Assembly: GCA_964554215.1 (NCBI GenBank) | Contig: CAZKND010000001.1 | Location: 9,158 to 73,157, forward strand | Reading direction: 5' to 3' | Origin: Candidatus Hadarchaeota archaeon | GTDB lineage: Archaea; Hadarchaeota; Hadarchaeia; Hadarchaeales; JAGGTB01 | DNA: 64,000 nucleotides | Shown: positions 15,306 to 55,089 of the stretch, one piece after another | Position numbering within the stretch: position 1 is the stretch's first letter | Layout: the number at the start of each line of letters is the position of its first letter | Program-made: the position numbers and the translations under genes | Notes under the pieces: model-generated | Told to the model about the DNA's origin: nothing | Databases searched by the model: none | What the model saw: the letters and a program-made list of their open reading frames with translations, nothing else

Positions 15306-16469
15306 GTGTTTAACATTTTACTAGGTGAATATAGATTGACGGTTTACATCGGAGAATGTCCATTAGGCGTATTTGCTTTCGATAATCAGCTCAATTTGAT
15401 AGAATCTGAACCATTCTCAAATGATACTAGGGAAATCGCCAATAAGATGTACAAAATACAGGAGGACGAACCTACTAAAGAACATTTTCAGCTTTTTGAA
15501 AAACTGATGGAAGAAAACGGTGAAAGCTTTTCGCTGGAATCGAAACAAATCGCGTCTGAAATACAGAAAAAGTTTGAAAATGTCGAAATTGAGATAGAAG
15601 TCCCAAATCCGGCGAATGAAAAATTAAGATCTTCGATGAGAGAAATTGGTAAAGATTTAGAGTTTGACGACGTACATCAGCTAATTCGAGATGTTAACAT
15701 CCTAATGACTAGGAAAGCTCTAAAAAGAGAAGCATCCGAGCGAGATAAGATAATAATAGAAACCATAGACATCATAGACGAGCTAGATGAAACAATAAAC
15801 TCTCTATACGGACGGATAGAAGAATGGTATGGAATACACTTCCCTGAATTAGAAAGACATATTTCTGAAAACTCAAAATACCTTCAATTAATATCAGAGC
15901 TAGGAAATAGAGAAAAATTCACTAAAGAAGAACTAATAGATTTAGATTTACCTGAAAAAAAAGCAGAAAGGATAGAAAACGATTCTAATAACTCTATAGG
16001 AGCTGAATTTGACGAAAAAGATATCGGAGCAATACAAGAAAATGTGCAAAAGGTCCGAGGACTCGAAGAATCCAGAAAAGAAACAGTTGAGTATCTAGAC
16101 GGTTTGATGGAACAAGTAGCTCCAAATATCAAAACACTCGTTGGGGGGCCTCTAGGCGCTAGACTGATTTCTCTTGCAGGAGGGTTGAAAGAACTAGCAA
16201 AAAAACCGTCAAGCACTATTCAAGTCCTAGGTGCCGAAAAAGCTCTCTTCAGATCTCTTAACGAAGGTGCCAAACCACCTAAACACGGGATAATTTTCCA
16301 ATACCCGGATATTAGAGGAGCTCCTGAGAGAAAAAGAGGAAAAATAGCCAGAGCCTTAGCCGGGAAAATCACGATAGCTGCCAGAGTGGACTCAATGTCC
16401 GGAAAATTTGTAGGGGACAAACTCAATAAAGAGTTGAAAGACAGGATAGAATCAATCAAGGAGGAATAG
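15306..16469 (+). CDS. nop5: Nop5/Nop56/58 C/D-box snoRNP protein
   Basis: Nop domain GAEKALFRSL ... GKIARALAGKITIAARVD. GTG start in the track; a TTG 10 codons downstream is also possible. Followed directly by fibrillarin. Confidence 0.85.
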   Translation: MFNILLGEYRLTVYIGECPLGVFAFDNQLNLIESEPFSNDTREIANKMYKIQEDEPTKEHFQLFEKLMEENGESFSLESKQIASEIQKKFENVEIEIEVPNPANEKLRSSMREIGKDLEFDDVHQLIRDVNILMTRKALKREASERDKIIIETIDIIDELDETINSLYGRIEEWYGIHFPELERHISENSKYLQLISELGNREKFTKEELIDLDLPEKKAERIENDSNNSIGAEFDEKDIGAIQENVQKVRGLEESRKETVEYLDGLMEQVAPNIKTLVGGPLGARLISLAGGLKELAKKPSSTIQVLGAEKALFRSLNEGAKPPKHGIIFQYPDIRGAPERKRGKIARALAGKITIAARVDSMSGKFVGDKLNKELKDRIESIKEE

Positions 16470-17159
16470 GTGTTTCAAATGATAGTTGAAGAACATAAAG
16501 ATTTTGAAGGTGTATATTGGATAGAATTCGAAGAAGGGAAAAAGAACCTTGCAACAAAAAACCTCTCTCCAGGAAATCAAGTTTATGAAGAAAAATTAGT
16601 CGAGTATCGAGGGGACGAATACAGAGTTTGGAACCCATATCGTAGCAAATTAGGAGCCGGGATACTGAGAGATATAGAAAATCTGCCCATTTCTGAAGGG
16701 GACAAAGTACTATATCTAGGTGCAGCCAACGGAACAACCGCCAGCCATATCTCAGACATTGTAGGCGAAAGCGGGATGGTTTACTGCGTAGAAATATCAT
16801 CAAGACCCCTGAGAGACTTGCTAGTAACTTCAGAACAGAGGCCTAATATGGCTCCAATACTTTCTGATGCTCAAAAAACAGAGAAATATAGAGCTACTAT
16901 TGAAGAAGTGGACCTGGTTTACCAAGATGTGGCTCATCCTGAACAGACCAATATAGCTCTTGAGAATACGAGAACTTTCCTCAAAGATAATGGAAAAGCG
17001 ATTATTGCCCTCAAAGCTAGAAGCATAGATGTTACAAAAGATCCTAGAGAGATATTCAGAAACGAAATGGAAAAAATAGAAGAAAAGATGGAAATAATCG
17101 AATCAAAGCTCTTGGATCCGTATGAAGAGGACCATGCGCTAGTAATTTCGGAAAAATAA
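16470..17159 (+). CDS. flpA: fibrillarin rRNA/tRNA 2'-O-methyltransferase
   Basis: YRVWNPYRSKLGAGIL ... VLYLGAANGTTASHISDIVG SAM-binding region. Classic nop5-flpA pair. Confidence 0.9.
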   Translation: MFQMIVEEHKDFEGVYWIEFEEGKKNLATKNLSPGNQVYEEKLVEYRGDEYRVWNPYRSKLGAGILRDIENLPISEGDKVLYLGAANGTTASHISDIVGESGMVYCVEISSRPLRDLLVTSEQRPNMAPILSDAQKTEKYRATIEEVDLVYQDVAHPEQTNIALENTRTFLKDNGKAIIALKARSIDVTKDPREIFRNEMEKIEEKMEIIESKLLDPYEEDHALVISEK

Positions 17160-38818: not shown

Positions 38819-39577
38819 ATGTTTGATGACGATAAATTCAGAAATCTGAGAATATTTAATCTTTCGATGGGATTTTTCCATCTGATTCAGTCCATGTTAA
38901 TGATATTTCTTAGCACAGACTTCGCGATATCAGTGACGAGTACCTACATGCAGGGACCACCAGGTACTGTAGAAGTAGCAAGAGAGGTTCTATTCGATAT
39001 AAAATTAGGACCTGCAATCGCATTGTTCCTATTGCTCTCAGCGGTGGCCCATTTCTATCTCTCATCTGTAGGTTTTGATTGGTACAAAGAAAATCTAAAA
39101 AATCATATAAATAAGGCTCGATGGATAGAGTATTTCTTCAGCAGTTCTCTCATGATCGTTATCATAGCTATGCTGGTTGGAATCACCGATTTAGCAGCTT
39201 TGGTAGCCTTGTTTGTTGTAAACGGATCCATGATCTTGTTCGGTTGGCTAATGGAATCATATAATCAAAACACTGAAGATGTTGCTTGGTCACCTTTCGT
39301 ATTCGGATGCATCGCCGGGATTGCTCCCTGGATTGCAATAGCCATCCGGCTAGCAACAGCTTTCTCCTTCACTTCCGTTCCTATTCCAAGTTTCGTTATC
39401 TGGATATTTGTATCGATAGCTATCTTTTTCAATATCTTTGCAGTTAACCAAGCCTTACAATACAAAGAAGTAGGGCCGTGGGAGAACTATCTTTTCGGAG
39501 AAAAGGTCTACATAGCCCTCAGCCTCATCGCGAAATCATTGCTAGCTTGGCAGGTCTTTGCAGGCACACTGGTCTAA
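38819..39577 (+). CDS. heliorhodopsin (7-TM retinal protein, inverted topology)
   Basis: FNLSMGFFHLIQ ... TYMQGPPGT ... WIEYFFSSS ... NGSMILFGWLMESYNQ ... FGCIAGIAPWIAIAI ... QALQYKEVGPWENYLFGEKVYIALSLIAKSLLAWQVFAGTL align block-for-block with heliorhodopsin 48C12 as I recall it. The Schiff-base lysine is in SLIAKS (codon 39533-39535) and the counterion Glu is in WIEYF. Confidence 0.85.
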   Translation: MFDDDKFRNLRIFNLSMGFFHLIQSMLMIFLSTDFAISVTSTYMQGPPGTVEVAREVLFDIKLGPAIALFLLLSAVAHFYLSSVGFDWYKENLKNHINKARWIEYFFSSSLMIVIIAMLVGITDLAALVALFVVNGSMILFGWLMESYNQNTEDVAWSPFVFGCIAGIAPWIAIAIRLATAFSFTSVPIPSFVIWIFVSIAIFFNIFAVNQALQYKEVGPWENYLFGEKVYIALSLIAKSLLAWQVFAGTLV

Positions 39578-42967: not shown

Positions 42968-43396
42968 CTATTCGTCCTTTTTCATCTCTTCTTCTACTTC
43001 TTCAAGACCATCTGAAATTTCTGTATCAAGCTCAATCTCTTCATCTTCCGCAGCCTCACCTGTCATAGAATCTATCATCTCTTCAACCTTCTCACCACTG
43101 AACTCCTCGTTCGTCAAAATTCCTTCACTGGTTATATCAACTGCCGTAGACAATGCTTCGTCCATAGATTCAGCTTTAAGCATGGCCTTTTCCATCTCCT
43201 TCTGGGTTGAAGCTATATCTTCAATCTCCGCACCCTCACCGATGGATTCCGCAACATCTTGAGCGAATTCTACAAAATTTCCGGAAAGTTTTACTAATTC
43301 TCTCTGTATCTGAGCTTCTTCCATTACCATCAAAAGCTTCTTACCTCTCTGAATTCTTTCCTGAAGAGTGAGATACTTTTTCGCCTGTCTTTTCAA
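42968..43396 (-). CDS. Snf7/ESCRT-III-like coiled-coil protein, apparently lacking an N-terminal start (possible pseudogene or 5'-truncated gene)
   Basis: The only start codon is the TTG at 43396. The reading frame stays open a further 43 codons upstream (KQRTIRYRKAKSKINKYISNLKELQNKVFEQGKEAASLNDKKF) with ESCRT-III-like composition (GKEAA...L.KRQAKKY) up to a TAG at 43526-43528. The C-terminal half is acidic, as in ESCRT-III. Confidence 0.35.
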   Translation of the reverse strand: MKRQAKKYLTLQERIQRGKKLLMVMEEAQIQRELVKLSGNFVEFAQDVAESIGEGAEIEDIASTQKEMEKAMLKAESMDEALSTAVDITSEGILTNEEFSGEKVEEMIDSMTGEAAEDEEIELDTEISDGLEEVEEEMKKDE

Positions 43397-43695
43397 AAAT
43401 TTCTTATCATTCAGACTCGCGGCCTCTTTACCCTGTTCAAAAACCTTATTTTGAAGTTCTTTAAGATTAGAGATATACTTGTTAATCTTGCTTTTCGCTT
43501 TCCTATAACGGATTGTTCTCTGCTTCTATCGAGACCTGATTCCGTAAAATCTAAAATGCTTGTCCTACCCTACTTTTGAATGTGCAGGAAATACACCTCC
43601 TCTCGATCCACCCTCCGGAAGAGGTGTACTCCTTTTCAACCACATCACTTGCAATACAAACTCAGCAAAAAAAGGATTTCAGAAGAGCCAAAAAA

Positions 43696-43710
43696 ATTTA
43701 AATAATTTGT
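43696..43710 (+). promoter_or_regulatory. BRE/TATA-like promoter element TTTAAATAATTTGT preceded by an A-run
   Basis: Lies 57 nt upstream of the GTG of the 170-aa gene. The identical 14-mer occurs at 51721-51734, upstream of the 508-aa gene. Confidence 0.5.
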
Positions 43711-43766
43711 CATCCGAACAAGAGAACTAAGAAATAACCTCTAAAATAACAAAGGAGGTGAGATTT

Positions 43767-44270
43767 GTGGCAGCAGGATTTAATTCAATGAGAGCAATGG
43801 CGGAACTCATGAGTCAAATGGACAAAGATGAAACCGTTACGTTGATTGAGTCTTCCAGAGATATTCTTGACGCTCTTGCAGAAAACCCTGAAGTATTGAA
43901 AACATTCAGTTCTATCCTGAAAGAATTAGCAGAAGATGAAGAAATCGCTAAAGGTTTATCCAATTTAGTTTCCTTAGCCGGACCATCTATCGATGCTCTG
44001 AACAACACAATGACTCCCGAAGCAGTAGACATGATGCACGAACTAGCACAGAACGATGATGTGAAGGAAGGCATAGGTTCTTTCCTATCAATTATAGACC
44101 CCGAAATGTTAGGGGCTCTACTACCAGTGATCGGATCAATTATAGGAGCAGTCCTATCTGAAATATCCAAAAATGAAGAAGCAAAAGAACACTTGATTGG
44201 TTTAATCTCTCATAGTGGTCCATTGGCTAAGAAAGCCAACACCGCTTTTATGGGTGAATCAGTCGACTAA
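43767..44270 (+). CDS. all-alpha helical-repeat protein (DUF1641-like?), copy A
   Basis: GTG start 7 nt after the AAGGAGGTG RBS. Differs from copy B (53366-53869) at 27 of about 167 aligned residues (roughly 84% identity), by my manual count. Confidence 0.6.
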   Translation: MAAGFNSMRAMAELMSQMDKDETVTLIESSRDILDALAENPEVLKTFSSILKELAEDEEIAKGLSNLVSLAGPSIDALNNTMTPEAVDMMHELAQNDDVKEGIGSFLSIIDPEMLGALLPVIGSIIGAVLSEISKNEEAKEHLIGLISHSGPLAKKANTAFMGESVD

Positions 44271-44302
44271 TGATTTCTAAAGACTTTTTAGAGGAATAAA
44301 AA

Positions 44303-44398
44303 ATGCCAGTGAAAAAGAAAGCTCTGGTCACAGGTGCGTGTGACTTTGTAGGTCCGCACATTATAGATTTTTTAGTAGCGCAGTATTCACGTAGGTAA
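44303..44398 (+). pseudogene. 5' remnant (31 codons) of an NAD-dependent epimerase/dehydratase gene
   Basis: MPVKKKALVTGACDFVGPHIIDFLV matches the N-terminus of the intact paralog at 53902 (MSGKKKALVTGACGFVGSHIIDLLV). Homology then breaks at about 44379 and a stop follows. Confidence 0.6.
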
Positions 44399-44420
44399 AA
44401 ATCCCTTTGTCTTTTTTGGT

Positions 44421-44457
44421 AAAATCTTCCCCGAGTTTTGAGGGATGGGGAGATTTT
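44421..44457. repeat. inverted repeat AAAATCTTCCCC / GGGGAGATTTT with a 14-nt spacer, just inside the insertion boundary
   Basis: Read directly from the sequence. The ATG of ORF 44445 lies in the spacer, immediately before the right arm (44447-44457). Confidence 0.5.
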
Positions 44458-44831
44458 GCCTATATCTTTTTAGATTCCCATTCGTGCCCGTGTTAGTTAG
44501 AGATTCGGTGTACGGAAAATTTTTGGAGGAGGATATTTACCTCTACCAGAAATTATTGAAAGTTTTCAGACTAGGACTGGAATCGACAAAGGTCGAGACT
44601 TCCCACTCCCAAATACTTGAAGCACTTTCAAAAAACATTTCAACCGTTCTTGAACCCGTGAGCTCTCGGACGCTCACCCCACATCACGAATTAATCGAAG
44701 CATACTCTATAAAGCTCACAAACGAAGTAAAAACATTCTACGAAACCGAAATCAAATCGCACGGAAATTCAGCCCGTACAAGCATGCAAAAAGCATTAGT
44801 CATCGTGCTCGAAGAAGGCGAAAAAGAATGA
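44445..44831 (+). CDS. hypothetical protein (128 aa) inside the higher-GC insertion
   Basis: ORF only. No recognisable motif. Confidence 0.35.
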   Translation: MGRFCLYLFRFPFVPVLVRDSVYGKFLEEDIYLYQKLLKVFRLGLESTKVETSHSQILEALSKNISTVLEPVSSRTLTPHHELIEAYSIKLTNEVKTFYETEIKSHGNSARTSMQKALVIVLEEGEKE

Positions 44832-44936: not shown

Positions 44937-45098
44937 ATGAAATGTTGGATATGTCGAGAAGAGAAGGAAGACCTTAAGGAGATAGAAGCCATGGGGTCGG
45001 AGCATCACGTGTGTTCTGACTGCCTCTGGAGGGTATTAGACGAGCACGGTAAGCCAAAGTACGAGACAAAGCCTAAGTGGGAGAATATCTATGAGTAA
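44937..45098 (+). CDS. small zinc-ribbon protein (53 aa; CWIC ... CSDC); not in the supplied ORF track
   Basis: My own translation: MKCWICREEKEDLKEIEAMGSEHHVCSDCLWRVLDEHGKPKYETKPKWENIYE. Overlaps the start of the downstream epimerase gene by 8 nt. Confidence 0.35.
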   Translation: MKCWICREEKEDLKEIEAMGSEHHVCSDCLWRVLDEHGKPKYETKPKWENIYE

Positions 45099-46799: not shown

Positions 46800-49070
46800 A
46801 TGTCAGAAGGGAAAAAAGAATTAGAACTTACAGTAGCAGAAGCACGTAGGCAAAAAGATGTAGGCAAAAATGTCGCGAGGATAAGCAAAAAAGCGATGAA
46901 AGAACTCGGAGTCAAACAAGGCGACATCATAGAGATCGAAGGTAACAAAAAATCCGGCGCCATAGTAAGGACAAGTTATAGAGAAGACGAAGGATTGGAC
47001 ATCATAAGACTAGACGGTCTCGAACGGAAAAACACTGGTACTTCAATTGGAGAAAAAGTGAAAGTACGGGAAGCAGAAGTGAAAGAAGCCGACAAGATCA
47101 CTATAGCCCCTGCAGATCAAAACATACAGATACAAGGAGGAGGTAGAGCACTAAAACAGAGCCTCCTAGGACGACCGGCAACCAAAGGCGACCTCATTAC
47201 ACCAACAGGACAACCAGGAGATATATTCTCCCAAATATTTGGAGGAATGTTCCAAGGTACATCTCCATCTTCATCTTTTGGACTGGGAGAACTTAGATTC
47301 ATGGTGACAAACGTAAATCCGGACGACCTAGTGCTGATCACAAAAAATACGACAGTAAACCTATCTTCAAAAACAGCAGATATAGAAGAAGCATCCACCC
47401 CGTCTATAACCTATGAAGATATCGGTGGACTAGACAAAGAAATCCAGAGAGTTCGAGAGATGGTCGAACTACCATTAAGACATCCAGAACTCTTTGACCA
47501 ACTAGGGATAGAACCACCGAAAGGAGTACTCCTACACGGACCTCCAGGAACTGGAAAAACGCTAACCGCAAAAGCAGTGGCAAACGAATCTGACGCCCAC
47601 TTCCAATCAATAGCAGGGCCAGAGATAATGTCAAAATTCTACGGAGAATCAGAAAAGAAGCTAAGAAACATTTTTGAAGAAGCAGAGAAAAACGCACCTT
47701 CCATAATATTCATCGACGAAATAGACGCCATAGCTTCAAAAAGAGAAGAGGTAAGCGGAGATGTGGAAAAAAGAGTTGTATCACAACTCCTATCCTTGCT
47801 GGATGGATTAGAATCTCGAGGAAAAGTCATAGTAATAGCAGCTACCAACCGAGTGGACGCCGTCGACCCCGCACTAAGAAGACCAGGTCGTTTCGACAGG
47901 GAGATAGAAATCGGAGTTCCAGACCGAGAGGGACGTAAAGAGATCATGCAAATACACACTCGAGGAATGCCCCTTTCAGAAGACGTCGACTTAGATAGGT
48001 TGGCCGACAATACTCACGGTTACGTCGGTGCAGACCTAGCTTCCTTGTCAAGAGAATCGGCGATGAACGCTTTGAGAGAGATATTGCCTGAGATCGACTT
48101 AGAAGATAAGAGAATTCCATCCGAAACTCTCGAAGGATTAGAGGTATCCGGAGAAAACTTCAGAAAAGCAAGACAACAAATAGAACCTTCCGCAATGAGA
48201 GAAGTGCTGGTCCAAGTTCCCGACACTCCATGGGAAGATGTAGGAGGGTTAGAAGAATCCAAACAACAACTTAGAGAAGCAGTTGAATGGCCGCTGAAGA
48301 AAGACGAAGCGTTCGAAAGAGTCGGTATAGAAGCCCCACACGGTATACTCCTATACGGACCACCAGGAACCGGTAAGACAATGCTCGCAAAAGCCGTAGC
48401 CACCGAAAGCGATTCTAATTTCATCTCTGTAAAAGGACCCGAACTCCTATCTAAATGGGTCGGAGAATCCGAAAAAGCGGTAAGAGAAACATTTAAAAAA
48501 GCAAGACAAGCTGCACCAACCGTAATATTTTTCGACGAAATCGACGCAATGGTGCCAAAAAGAGGCCGGAGACAAAGTAGTTCACAAGTAGGAGAAAGAG
48601 TGATCAGTCAACTATTAACAGAGATGGACGGTCTAGAGGAACTAGAAAACGTAGTAGTTATCGGTGCAACAAACAGGCCTGATCTCGTAGATCCAGCTCT
48701 ATTGAGACCAGGAAGATTCGACAGAGTCATGATGGTTCCAGGACCAGACAAAGAAGCGAGAGAAGAAATCTTCAAGATACACACCAGAGAGATGCCAATA
48801 GCAGAAGATGTCGACCTAGAAGAACTTGCTGAAGAAACTGCTGGATACAGCGGAGCAGATATCGCAGCTGTTTGCAAAGAAGCAGGGATGCTCGCTCTAA
48901 GAGAAGATATAGAAACAGAAACCGTCTCCAAAGAAGAATTCGAAGAAGCTTTGAAATCGGTCGGTCCATCGATTACAGATGAGATAACTGATACCTACAA
49001 AGAGTTCAAAAGTAAACACGGGAAAGAAATCGCTGAAGAAGCTAAAAAGGAAATGAAAGCCTACTACTAA
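46800..49070 (+). CDS. cdc48: CDC48/VCP-like AAA+ ATPase (N-domain plus two AAA modules)
   Basis: Two Walker A motifs (GPPGTGKT twice), two Walker B DEID/DEIDA motifs and second-region-of-homology arginines. 756 aa. Confidence 0.9.
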
Positions 49071-51507: not shown

Positions 51508-51720
51508 GATTCTATTTCCAAAATATTACTTTTCTATTTTTGACGAACCAACCTATTCGTGGATGTATTCTAATGAGTTTAGAGAGTGAAAAGAATAATA
51601 CTTTCACATTATCTCAGAAGAGAACTTCCTAGACAATGCAAAAATATAACCTCCAAACAATTCCCAACGATGCAAAATCCAAAAGCAAAAAAAGGAACTA
51701 TCCAGAAAAAAAGAAAAAAG

Positions 51721-51734
51721 TTTAAATAATTTGT
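51721..51734 (+). promoter_or_regulatory. BRE/TATA-like element TTTAAATAATTTGT upstream of the 508-aa gene
   Basis: 39 nt upstream of the ATG at 51773. A GGTGA RBS lies in between. Same 14-mer as at 43696. Confidence 0.5.
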
Positions 51735-51772: not shown

Positions 51773-53299
51773 ATGCCAAAATTCGAGCTTTCGGAAATCG
51801 ATAAGGAAGGATTGGAAAAAGGTGCAGACAGGGTACAACCAGAATGGTGGCAGATAGTTGAAGTCTCCGGAGCTCTTGAAAAGGGAGAAGTTCCATCAGC
51901 TGAAGAAAGATTCGGAGGAGTTGCATTAGCTCCCATTGAACTTGACCATGGTATTCTTCCAAACTTGATGAAAGATTTTCTACCTCAAATCTTCATAGAC
52001 AACCCAACGATGACAACTCTAATTACAGACGAAGAAGGCGACCATATCATATGGGCAGGTGTAGAGCATGCCGAAGGCGGAGTTTACAAATGGGTTGAAA
52101 GAGTTGACCCTAAAGGCGAATGGGCAGAACCAGTGAATGAAAAATTATCAGAGGGAGATTATGAAGGTGCCTACGAAGAAACCAAAAAGATGGTTGAAGA
52201 AGAATTTGGAGTTGATTTAGGACTAATAAAAATAGCTAAACCTCAATTCTTTATAGAATTAGAAAAAACCTTTGAAGCTGCAGAAGAAGGGGAAGACTTA
52301 ATCGGATGGATTCCTCAAGTAATGGATTTCGGAGTCACTATTTTTGAAGAAGATTATATCAATTTTTATCCTGAACCCTATTTTTACCAATTTTTAAACG
52401 AAGTACTTGAACCCATGATAAAGGAATTAGATGGAGACGAGCTTGAACCTATTCTCAGGAAGTTCATCGACGAACCTCCACTCGACATAATCATACCACT
52501 CAAGAGCAGAGGGAAATCCTCCGCACTCAGAATAAAGCAAGATAGCGATAACATAGTGATAACTTCAGTCGATTTAGAAGTCAATGAGGAATTGTATTCA
52601 GACGATGTGAAAAAACTAGCTCAAAATTACAGGGACAAGTTCCCCGAAGCGGACTTAGTTCTTTCCCTAAACGTCAATGAAGACTTAAAGAATCTACTAA
52701 GTCAGCTAATGACAGACATTCCGATGAGTGAAGAAACATACGCTAAAATAGGGACCTATGTGGGCAATCTGTTAAACTCACTTGGAGAAGATGTTTGGAT
52801 TGAAATGAATGATAACTGGCTTAATCTAAACAACATCTTGGAGTGGGCGGAAGAATTGTTGGATTATGACATCAGAGAGCTTAATCTACCTCTAGATATG
52901 GTGATGGTGGGAATGGAAAAAACGCTATCCCAACATCCTATGGGAATATTCGTCACGGACGAAAACAGAGAATTGGTAACATCAATAGTAGCAGACTTCA
53001 CGGAAGATGTCCCTAAACTTGAAACAGTAAACAAAAGTGAACTAGAGGAAATATTTAAAATAGAAGGTTCAAATGCAGTGAGCGAAGCTGTTTCCGAACT
53101 TCCTGAGGAATATGGAACTGTCCACCCATGTATCGAGGTTAAGATAGACGAGATAGTACCTATAGTCGCCGAACTAAAGAAATCAATGAAAGAGCCTAGA
53201 AGATCTCCGCTATACCTCATGAGAATTCTAACTTACCTAGGGGACATTTTAGAAAAAGGGATAAACTTCTCAGATTCTCCTTATCAGTTAACAGAATAA
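51773..53299 (+). CDS. hypothetical acidic protein (508 aa), no recognisable domain
   Basis: Long ORF with normal codon usage, its own promoter and RBS. Sits upstream of the 170-aa helical protein (copy B). Confidence 0.5.
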   Translation: MPKFELSEIDKEGLEKGADRVQPEWWQIVEVSGALEKGEVPSAEERFGGVALAPIELDHGILPNLMKDFLPQIFIDNPTMTTLITDEEGDHIIWAGVEHAEGGVYKWVERVDPKGEWAEPVNEKLSEGDYEGAYEETKKMVEEEFGVDLGLIKIAKPQFFIELEKTFEAAEEGEDLIGWIPQVMDFGVTIFEEDYINFYPEPYFYQFLNEVLEPMIKELDGDELEPILRKFIDEPPLDIIIPLKSRGKSSALRIKQDSDNIVITSVDLEVNEELYSDDVKKLAQNYRDKFPEADLVLSLNVNEDLKNLLSQLMTDIPMSEETYAKIGTYVGNLLNSLGEDVWIEMNDNWLNLNNILEWAEELLDYDIRELNLPLDMVMVGMEKTLSQHPMGIFVTDENRELVTSIVADFTEDVPKLETVNKSELEEIFKIEGSNAVSEAVSELPEEYGTVHPCIEVKIDEIVPIVAELKKSMKEPRRSPLYLMRILTYLGDILEKGINFSDSPYQLTE

Positions 53300-53365
53300 T
53301 TTGTATTACCCTCCTAGCAGGAGAACTAAGAAATAACTTCCAAAATAATAAAGGAGGTGAAATTT

Positions 53366-53869
53366 GTGGCAACAGGATTTAATTCAATGAGAGCAATGGC
53401 GGAACTTATGAGTCAAATGGACCAAGACGAAGCCGTTACGTTAATCGAATCTTCCAGAGATATTCTTGACGCTCTTGCAAACAACCCAGAAGTACTGAAA
53501 ACCTTCAGTTCAATTTTGAAAGAATTGTCGGAGGACGATGAAATAGCTAAAGGTTTCTCCAATTTAGTTGCCTTGGCCGGACCATCTATCAGTGCTCTGA
53601 ACAACGCAATGACTCCAGAAGTAGTAGACATGATGCACGAACTCGTGCAAGACGATGATGTAAAGGAAGGTATAGGTTCATTCCTATCGATCATAGACCC
53701 AGAAGTATTGGGAACTCTACTACCAGTGATCGGATCGGTTGTAGGAGCAATTCTATCTGACATATCTGAAGATGAAGAAGCAAAAGAACATCTAATGGCT
53801 TTAATCTCTCATAGTGGTGCCTTGGCAGAGAAGGCCAACACCGCTCTTATGGGTGAACCAGTCGACTAA
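53366..53869 (+). CDS. all-alpha helical-repeat protein (DUF1641-like?), copy B
   Basis: GTG start 7 nt after the AAGGAGGTG RBS. Paralog of 43767-44270. Confidence 0.6.
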   Translation: MATGFNSMRAMAELMSQMDQDEAVTLIESSRDILDALANNPEVLKTFSSILKELSEDDEIAKGFSNLVALAGPSISALNNAMTPEVVDMMHELVQDDDVKEGIGSFLSIIDPEVLGTLLPVIGSVVGAILSDISEDEEAKEHLMALISHSGALAEKANTALMGEPVD

Positions 53870-53901
53870 TGATTTCTAAAGACTTTTTAGAGGAATAAAA
53901 A

Positions 53902-55089
53902 ATGTCAGGAAAAAAGAAAGCTCTGGTCACAGGTGCGTGTGGCTTCGTAGGCTCGCATATTATTGACCTTTTAGTAGAGGACGATGACTACGAAGATGTG
54001 ATTGCAACAGATCTCGAGTCAGCTGATACTAGTCATCTGGAAGACAAAGACGTAGACTTCAGACCGGCTGACTTTACAAAACCGGAGACCATCGATGAGA
54101 TACTGGATGAAGACATAGACGTTATTTTCAACCCAGCTGCGGCATTTAATTACGAGATGCCCATGCAGGTGATGAAGAAAATAAACGTTGAAGGAGGACG
54201 AAACTTTGCAGAAGCTGTGGTTGAAAACGTCGAGGACCTAGATATATTCGTCCATGTTAGCACCGGAGAAATCTATGGATACAACATGTTTGGAAAGAGC
54301 GAAGAACTAGATGAAGACGGTCATTTCAAGGAAGTAGAATCTAAAACACCTGGTGAAGCTCCCTATGCAAAAACCAAAAAACTACAAGAAGAAGAGATTT
54401 GGGAACTACACGAGGAAGAAGATCTACCAGTTGTAGACATGAGACTTGGAACTGTTTATGGACCAGGATTGTTCTTTGCAAGACTGGTGAATCTTTTCAT
54501 TGACCTTGCGTCTCTCGGAAGATTCCCAGACAATATCAACTTTAGATGGCCGCTGGTCCATGTCGAAGATGTAGCTTCAGCAGCTAAATTCCTCGCAGAA
54601 AAAGGAGACGAAGTTATAGGCGAGGCCTATAATATAGTGGACGAACAGGAATACATCCTATCGGACATGGTTTACAAAGTAGCTGACTACATGGACATGG
54701 AAGTAGAGAACCTACCTAATATTCCTTCTATGGGTGAACTTTGGAAATTAATTCCAAAGGGAGAACTGGTAGAAGATATTCTAGACGAAGCTTACCCAGA
54801 ATACCAAAACCAAGTGGAAGACCGATATGACGATGATGTCTGGATGAAATACAACCATGCAGGACCATACGCAAAACTCTTGCTAAATAACATGCCTGAA
54901 TGGGACGATGATTTCACATATTCCAACAAAAGTTTGAAAGAAATTGGTTGGGAACCGAAGTACGAAAGTTTCCTCGATGCTATTCCAGAGATTATAGAAT
55001 GGAGTAAAGAAAACGGTTATCTCGTAGAGAATCCAGGTCTAAAGCATCTAGTAACAAAGGCTCTAATCTCCGACCCTTCAGAAGCCTAA
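53902..55089 (+). CDS. NAD-dependent epimerase/dehydratase (extended SDR) family protein, intact copy
   Basis: LVTGACGFVGSHI Rossmann motif and catalytic APYAKTK. 395 aa with a C-terminal extension. Confidence 0.8.
   Translation: MSGKKKALVTGACGFVGSHIIDLLVEDDDYEDVIATDLESADTSHLEDKDVDFRPADFTKPETIDEILDEDIDVIFNPAAAFNYEMPMQVMKKINVEGGRNFAEAVVENVEDLDIFVHVSTGEIYGYNMFGKSEELDEDGHFKEVESKTPGEAPYAKTKKLQEEEIWELHEEEDLPVVDMRLGTVYGPGLFFARLVNLFIDLASLGRFPDNINFRWPLVHVEDVASAAKFLAEKGDEVIGEAYNIVDEQEYILSDMVYKVADYMDMEVENLPNIPSMGELWKLIPKGELVEDILDEAYPEYQNQVEDRYDDDVWMKYNHAGPYAKLLLNNMPEWDDDFTYSNKSLKEIGWEPKYESFLDAIPEIIEWSKENGYLVENPGLKHLVTKALISDPSEA

Follow-up and report, generated by a model that had tools for sequence, protein, structure and literature searches.

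A start-less ESCRT-III-like reading frame in a Hadarchaeota contig is probably a 5′-truncated gene fragment

How an open reading frame (ORF) that resembles a gene of the membrane-remodelling ESCRT-III proteins can lack a start codon for its N-terminal helix is the question raised by one locus in a contig of a Candidatus Hadarchaeota archaeon (CAZKND010000001.1, positions 9,158 to 73,157 of the forward strand; this whole stretch of 64,000 nucleotides (nt) is referred to as the window). Read on the minus strand, the frame extends uninterrupted from 43525 down to a TAG stop and gives a conceptual translation of 185 codons (Table 1). A first-pass annotation had reported that the sole start of this ORF is a TTG yielding a 142-aa product, and that 43 further codons, all start-less, precede it up to another TAG; these coordinates are confirmed. 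ATG, GTG, and TTG are all absent from the 43-codon extension, so that the start codon expected of an intact gene ahead of helix α1 is missing. Three explanations had been offered: a pseudogene, a gene with a sequencing or frameshift problem at 43526–43560, or an unusually N-truncated member of the superfamily. The first fits best. With a probability of roughly 75%, the ORF is a 5′-truncated, start-less fragment (a pseudogene) of a euryarchaeal-type ESCRT-III gene from the family present in Candidatus Methanohalarchaeum thermophilum HMET1, and it is presumably not expressed. Judged from its sequence, a normal ESCRT-III subunit cannot be made from the fragment as it stands, because a start codon, the N-terminal H0 segment, and an adjacent Vps4/CdvC-type ATPase are all lacking. 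The absence of a start codon is thereby explained without new biology.

On profile evidence, the body of the ORF falls within the ESCRT-III superfamily on its Snf7/Vps24 side, since the Pfam match, the family profile, and the matches to solved structures all point there and PspA_IM30 is not matched. The 185-aa form matches Pfam Snf7 (PF03357) with an E-value of 2.1e-5 and 24.7 bits, slightly below the gathering score of 27.3, and residues 8–133 align with profile positions 7–135. The 142-aa form gives no match to this profile. As Snf7 is matched solely when the 43 extra codons are included, the extension is coding-derived rather than a chance resemblance, and the ESCRT-III-like character that the first pass had ascribed to it is borne out. 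A hidden Markov model (HMM) of the family, built without the window sequence, recovers the 185-aa frame with an E-value of 4.3e-59, and the extension is ~76% identical to the HMET1 homologue (our own count on the alignment). Three relatives were recovered when 5.8 billion proteins were searched with a word index. The best homologue is a 203-aa protein of HMET1 (P0001) that is annotated as a putative cell division protein of the ESCRT-III/Snf7 family, with 71% identity over 98% of the 185 aa; a 199-aa protein (P0003) is 54% identical to the 185-aa translation. The third, a public protein of 121 aa (P0002, 99% identity), is the same locus annotated by NCBI from an internal start and is best regarded as part of a pseudogene. 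HMET1 was the sole relative found among the GTDB species representatives searched, and no close relatives were found in JGI metagenome contigs or IMG/VR viral contigs.

An exhaustive HMMER search with a three-sequence profile (cut-off E≤1e-3) delineated a family of 146 cluster representatives, most of them 195–215 aa long, including one protein from an Anaerolineae metagenome-assembled genome (MAG). Pfam Snf7 is matched by 20 of the 47 aligned family members (best E-value 1.4e-8). Among solved structures, a profile of the 47 sequences matches yeast Vps24 over nearly its full length (6zh3, 2.6e-10) as well as CHMP3 (3frt, 7.5e-5), Sulfolobus islandicus CdvB (9s9j, 8.9e-5), CHMP1B, and a Heimdallarchaeal ESCRT-IIIB (9ftl). 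Assignment to the ESCRT-III/Snf7 superfamily, as first proposed, is therefore upheld by these family-level matches. In the Vps24 match, the C-terminus of Vps24 is paired with a conserved amphipathic helix at the C-terminal end of the family, ELDTEISDGLEEVEEEMKK, and by analogy this helix may bind MIT domains. The window protein ends just past this acidic helix, which, unlike in CdvB, leaves no room for a C-terminal winged helix. An AlphaFold2 model of the 185-aa form, computed from a shallow alignment of eight sequences, has helices at residues 2–37, 41–95, 101–136, 144–162, and 165–182 (predicted local distance difference test score (pLDDT) of 71.5 and predicted template modeling score (pTM) of 0.56). 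A Foldseek comparison of this model with the PDB was not significant, with CdvB2 and CdvB filaments in ranks 2–6 (E-values of 0.15–0.5) and CdvB2, at 0.15, the best ESCRT-III match. The predicted helix order nonetheless resembles that of ESCRT-III proteins and lends slight support to the assignment. PspA and Vipp1 (PF04012) belong to the same superfamily and share the helical-hairpin architecture (PMC8281802). The PspA/Vipp1 profile proposed as a check matched neither the 185-aa nor the 142-aa form, even at E≤10; in contrast, the best profile matches of the window family lie in the Snf7/Vps24 branch. A PDB match of the three-sequence profile to designed PPR proteins was rejected as a repeat artefact.

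What is missing from the ORF is its N-terminus. Full-length relatives begin with M-x-L-F-x-K-S..E.E.ER, as exemplified by MGLKNYFKRKIFGVPREEKELKRNM-RYRKAK in HMET1, MGIIKKLKGKSKAEKDIEREI-RYRKAK in P0003, and MALFGKSKEEKELEREM.. or MSLFKSRRKRELEAEL.. in other members. The window body aligns to the end of this ~200-aa family from profile position ~16, whereas the conserved N-terminal segment (M-x-L-F..K.KEE.E.E) is absent. In ESCRT-III proteins generally, the N-terminal H0 region mediates lipid binding (PMC7619361), and the M-x-L-F-x-K... motif that corresponds to this membrane-binding element in the ~200-aa family is lacking from the window ORF. An N-terminal HMM of 27 nodes, also built without the window sequence, aligns to the window from node 16 only (RTIRYRKAKSKI) and in one frame; all three upstream frames lack nodes 1–15. 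Three-frame translation of the same DNA showed that the other two frames hold neither a start codon nor anything resembling the family. The entire 64 kb was also searched in six frames; neither a significant orphan N-terminal piece nor a second family member was found, and a split gene was rejected on this result. One shorter relative at first appeared to provide a precedent for an N-truncated member: P0006 (183 aa) begins with MERELAYRKAK. This protein was called from an internal ATG, and the true start 13 codons upstream yields MKLFGRKSKEGRE (L004, 207–812). Its shortness is a gene-calling artefact, and short N-termini in the ~200-aa family are untrustworthy unless checked. No family member checked is genuinely without its N-terminus, and positive evidence for an unusually N-truncated member is thus lacking.

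The same result bears on the proposal that the gene is intact in the organism and has been broken in the assembly, by a chimeric join or an indel near 43526–43560. The contig is metagenome-assembled and the sequence is present as a single copy in the databases searched, both of which are compatible with such an error. An indel, however, would shift the sequence encoding the N-terminus into a different frame. Since the 5′ end is absent from every frame, a single indel or sequencing error in this interval cannot restore the gene, and rescue by frameshift was rejected. A chimera is disfavored by the flanking DNA. Both flanks are collinear with the same relative contigs (see below), so that two precise joins within 600 nt would be required, and the duplicates nearby are 87% identical and hence poor substrates for misassembly. 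An artefact of this kind is very improbable.

The history of the locus is visible in its collinear relatives. The neighboring DUF362-ferredoxin protein has close relatives in P0158 (87% identity) and P0159 (83%). P0159 lies on four independently assembled contigs (L005–L008) that are collinear with the window over ~21 kb, with shared orthologues mostly 75–98% identical in protein (range 64–98%). The common gene order begins with genes for a 508-aa protein, RFC, Tpt1, desulfoferrodoxin, Cdc48, an epimerase, a 53-aa ORF, and a 170-aa protein. Past the spot occupied by the ESCRT-like ORF, it continues with DUF362, a ParA-type ATPase, an acidic ~130-aa protein, DUF2270, heliorhodopsin, RDD, rubrerythrin, NurA, and HerA. 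No ESCRT-like sequence was found in the L005–L008 loci, either by tblastn with three queries or with the family HMM on six-frame translations. In a blastn alignment, window positions 44400 to 43540 correspond to L005 8616–9474 with 89% identity; on the other side, 42861 to 42703 correspond to L005 9951–10110 with 82.5% identity, with weaker similarity back to ~42957. Between these limits lies a window-specific segment of ~560–580 nt that comprises the ESCRT-like ORF from about codon 15–20 to the stop codon plus ~6 nt. The DNA upstream of ~43540, where a frameshift had been suspected, is instead native intergenic sequence that is 89% identical in relatives without the ESCRT gene. The 5′ junction can be placed no more precisely than 43521–43540, and a short similarity within it, AGGTCTCGAT--AGAAG in the window and AAGTTTCGATGGAGAAG in L005, may or may not be homologous. 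As a consequence, the TAG at 43528 lies in or at the junction.

At the same spot, L005 holds 355 nt of unrelated sequence. The local alignment score between the two inserts is 27, compared with 26.4 ± 3.3 for shuffled sequences; residual homology between them was rejected on this basis. L012, the contig that carries the 87% identical DUF362 relative, contains neither insert and also lacks 43541–43674. The host spot is the interval that separates the 170-aa gene from the divergently oriented DUF362 gene, both of which retain their own conserved promoter regions. From these alignments, the ESCRT-like ORF appears as a lineage-specific, 5′-truncated segment in an intergenic spot that differs among three related lineages, and the locus illustrates the creation and loss of gene fragments. 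A rearrangement would have placed, or left, this piece of an ESCRT-III gene, from roughly codon 15–20 through the stop codon and ~6 nt beyond, between the two divergent genes. The event may have been a partial duplication, an illegitimate recombination, or a deletion, and it was probably recent, because the body shows no excess of substitutions. The neighboring region holds several partial duplications, a pattern in keeping with either a partial duplication or a deletion with part of the gene left behind.

Table 1 Coordinates of the features at the ESCRT-like locus (positions are those of the window)
Feature	Position	Strand	Remarks
5′ breakpoint zone	43521–43540		Upstream collinear with L005–L008 at 89%, downstream window-specific (blastn, pairwise alignment)
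3′ breakpoint zone, directly past the stop codon	42958–42967		L005 and L012 homology resumes, strong from 42861 (DUF362 promoter region)
Native intergenic DNA	43541–43674		Common to L005–L008, absent from L012; holds a hairpin and the in-frame ATG at 43645
Family-homologous body, 183 intact codons (RTIRYRKAK... to ...EEEMKKDE)	42971–43519	−	Helices α1–α5 and C-terminal amphipathic helix
Start-less extension, 43 codons (KQRTIRYRKAKSKINKYISNLKELQNKVFEQGKEAASLNDKKF)	43397–43525	−	Most of helix α1; required for the Snf7 profile match
In-frame TAG closing the frame	43526–43528	−	Inside the 5′ junction zone
TTG, first in-frame ATG/GTG/TTG	43394–43396	−	Predicted 142-aa product without helix α1
ORF stop codon TAG	42968–42970	−	C-terminus within 1–2 residues of homologue ends (alignment)

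Beyond the closing TAG, the frame contains a further TAG at 43567–43565 and then an ATG at 43645, the first ATG downstream of a bidirectional TATA-like box at 43693–43706. Translation from this ATG through both stops, for example by insertion of pyrrolysine, would produce a protein of ~226 aa whose N-terminus is novel. In addition to the position of the ATG past the promoter-like box and in frame with the ORF, this proposal draws on the nature of the two intervening stops, both TAG, and on the absence of TAA and TGA from the 39 codons in question. The pyrrolysine machinery is present in Methanonatronarchaeia and has reportedly been laterally transferred to MSBL1 archaea (bioRxiv 10.1101/2024.09.30.615893), and the closest homologue, that of HMET1, comes from a pyrrolysine-using lineage. 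Nevertheless, TAG terminates 11 of the 57 long ORFs in the window (19%), and it ends the ESCRT-like ORF itself exactly at the family end. The upstream stretch is native intergenic DNA without resemblance to the family N-terminus, and the ATG at 43645 does not belong to a conserved ORF: the corresponding ATG frame of L005 runs into a TGA after 12 codons, and the upstream sequences of the window and L005 are set apart by indels whose lengths are not divisible by three. Neither a tRNA gene (tRNA-Pyl included) nor pyl genes were seen in the window. Read-through is accordingly extremely improbable, and a reassignment of TAG to pyrrolysine was rejected, with TAG an ordinary stop, the upstream frame not conserved in L005, and no tRNA in the window.

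Several features of the retained codons weigh against a pseudogene. All 183–185 codons are free of stops and frameshifts. In relative-rate tests, 9 substitutions are unique to the window and 17 to HMET1 with P0003 as the outgroup, and 11 are unique to each with P0005. The GC content of the fragment and its GC content at third codon positions (GC3) are 39.3% and 37.7%, respectively, compared with 41.4% and 37.7% for the host and 33.7% and 26.5% for the HMET1 gene. Intact, unaccelerated codons are equally expected of a gene that is still under selection. The lack of a rate excess together with the host-like composition therefore implies either long selection in such a genome followed by a recent cut, or that some function persists.

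The second of these outcomes corresponds to a functional, N-terminally shortened ESCRT-III-like protein that might act without H0, or that might regulate or act as a decoy for a Vps4 encoded elsewhere. Candidate starts are the TTG at 43396 (142 aa), the TTG at 43333 or ATG at 43330 (~120 aa, the form annotated by NCBI as P0002), and the non-canonical ATC at 43513 and ATT at 43486. Besides the 185 intact codons, the absence of rate acceleration, and the match in composition to the host, such a protein would retain the C-terminal amphipathic helix paired with the end of Vps24 in the profile match, and a Shine-Dalgarno-like motif (GAGAGGT) precedes the TTG/ATG pair at 43333/43330. No Shine-Dalgarno-like motif was found upstream of the TTG at 43396. 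Initiation at 43396 or 43330, however, would remove α1, and the later start would also remove part of α2, although the α1–α2 hairpin is needed for ESCRT-III polymerization (PMC7619361). An internal start would moreover leave 43 well-conserved codons unused and forfeit the Snf7 match, which vanishes for the 142-aa form; no canonical start lies ahead of α1, and no precedent without an N-terminus was found among the checked family members. Relatives are without the gene at this locus, and no partner ATPase is encoded nearby in the 64-kb window. A shortened functional protein is consequently unlikely. An H0-less product of an internal or non-canonical start that modulates Vps4/ESCRT-III elsewhere, or a Methanonatronarchaeia-type ESCRT-III transferred into a different halophilic archaeal lineage, would likewise be a doubtful account of the locus.

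With respect to the source of the truncated fragment, its host-like composition means that it is not obviously a fresh foreign import, and this speaks against recent import from the low-GC Methanohalarchaeum. The DUF362 neighbor is ~52–55% identical to its HMET1 counterpart, whereas the ESCRT fragment is 71% identical, a discordance that hints at a lateral transfer in the past. The DUF362 protein is closer to proteins from MAGs (69% and 67%), from a Hadarchaeota MAG (60%), and from MSBL1 SCG-AAA382B04 (59%). The DUF362 neighborhoods of HMET1, one Hadarchaeota MAG, and two NCBI MAGs share no synteny with the window. The fragment may be what remains of a resident gene, an incomplete copy of a paralogue located elsewhere in the genome, or a piece that was acquired.

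An archaeal ESCRT system would be expected to include, alongside ESCRT-III, a Vps4/CdvC ATPase with an MIT domain and a single AAA domain, and none was found in the 64-kb window by tblastn with the 373-aa CdvC-like ATPase of HMET1. The matches to this query are the AAA domains of Cdc48 (46800–49070) and, weakly, RFC-type AAA domains. Downstream of the ESCRT-like ORF, the co-directional genes encode the DUF362-ferredoxin, the ParA-type ATPase, and an acidic 135-aa ORF. The run of genes that the first pass had placed the ORF at the head of is real; it is positional rather than functional, because relatives retain DUF362, ParA, and the acidic ORF without the ESCRT piece. In HMET1 (L001, 3386–9802), by comparison, the full-length gene (contig MSDW01000002.1) lies directly upstream of the 373-aa CdvC/Vps4-like single-AAA ATPase, which matches NCBIfam CdvC (7e-64, positions 69–364 of 370) and Cdc48 D2. 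The HMET1 protein shares with the window translation the order of the helices and the acidic C-terminal ...ELDxEISDxLExIEEEMK end; it differs in having an ATG, an N-terminus, and an adjoining ATPase, all of which the window copy lacks. The two loci share no synteny, and the GC content of the window copy is higher (39% vs 34%). On either side of the HMET1 pair are proteins of 665 and 664 aa that match no Pfam family, the former with weak SMC-like coiled-coil matches in NCBIfam. In a Logan contig (L002, 43–2810), an ESCRT-III gene is directly followed by one for a 718-aa double-AAA protein. Makarova et al. (2024) described euryarchaeal Vps4 and ESCRT-III with lineage-specific accessory proteins, in the clades Main, Halo_FHA, Meth_adaptin, and Halo_adaptin (PMC10936438). 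The HMET1 and L002 loci, with ESCRT-III followed by an AAA ATPase and with large accessory proteins, resemble these systems, whereas the window holds a fragment of the ESCRT-III component alone. A ~200-aa ESCRT-III family with a conserved MxLF N-terminus and an adjoining AAA ATPase is present in Methanonatronarchaeia-like archaea and some bacteria.

The DNA around the locus is visibly rearrangement-prone, as it contains an 87% identical segmental duplication with a truncated 5′ fragment of the epimerase gene and an ORF that matches DUF2080. Positions 43701–44378 are an 87% identical copy (683 nt) of 53295–53977 and carry the 170-aa gene with its Shine-Dalgarno and 5′ region; the duplicated 170-aa paralogues (43758–44270 and 53357–53869) are 84% identical in protein. 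Fused to this copy is a stretch (43664–43710) that resembles 51684–51734, a promoter-like sequence of the 508-aa gene. A 10-bp repeat, AATAATTTGT, at 51725–34 and 53295–304 marks the site of the 508-aa gene that is missing from the copy, which thus looks like the operon at 51.7–54 kb minus this gene. Within the same duplication, which thereby gave rise to a second gene fragment, 44306–44378 is the truncated epimerase fragment (~75 nt, ~90% identical) of the gene that starts at 53902. On the plus strand at 44445–44831, a 128-aa ORF matches with its C-terminus the Pfam family DUF2080, "putative transposon-encoded protein" (E-value of 1e-4). Judging from this match, the ORF, which lies between the duplicated segment and the epimerase gene at 45091, may be what is left of a mobile element. 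The adjacent segmental duplication was rejected as the direct cause of the truncation, its left edge at ~43664 being ~125 nt from the breakpoint. The 170-aa gene of L005 (8745–9257) is 89.4% identical to the distant paralogue in the window and 84.7% identical to the positional copy, a pattern that suggests gene conversion or paralogue exchange. No Pfam family was found for the 170-aa or the 508-aa protein.

Upstream of the ORF, a window-specific hairpin at 43583–43633 has a stem of ~16 bp (GGAGTACACCTCTTCC ... GGAGGTGTATTTCC) and is followed by TTTT on the plus strand. A structured RNA or riboswitch was rejected: Rfam gave no match at gathering thresholds and chance-level ones at E≤10. The fold of the 201-nt upstream region has a z-score of −1.27, and the left arm of the hairpin is not conserved in L005.

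The remainder of the window holds ordinary archaeal chromosomal genes, among them Hel308, Elp3, GatDE, PurA, PEPCK, MetAP, and TreT; it is low in GC, and by eye its predicted proteins are markedly acidic. The plus-strand ORF at 15306–16469 ends at a TAG in direct frame with the next ORF (16470–17159, plus strand). By eye, we take these two to be Nop5-like and fibrillarin-like genes, respectively, and they are probably ordinary neighbors that are not fused by read-through. Finally, a plus-strand gene at 38819–39577 encodes a membrane protein of 252 aa whose L005 orthologue (87.7% identity) matches Pfam Heliorhodopsin (PF18761), and this heliorhodopsin-like gene adjoins the DUF2270, RDD, rubrerythrin, and NurA/HerA genes.

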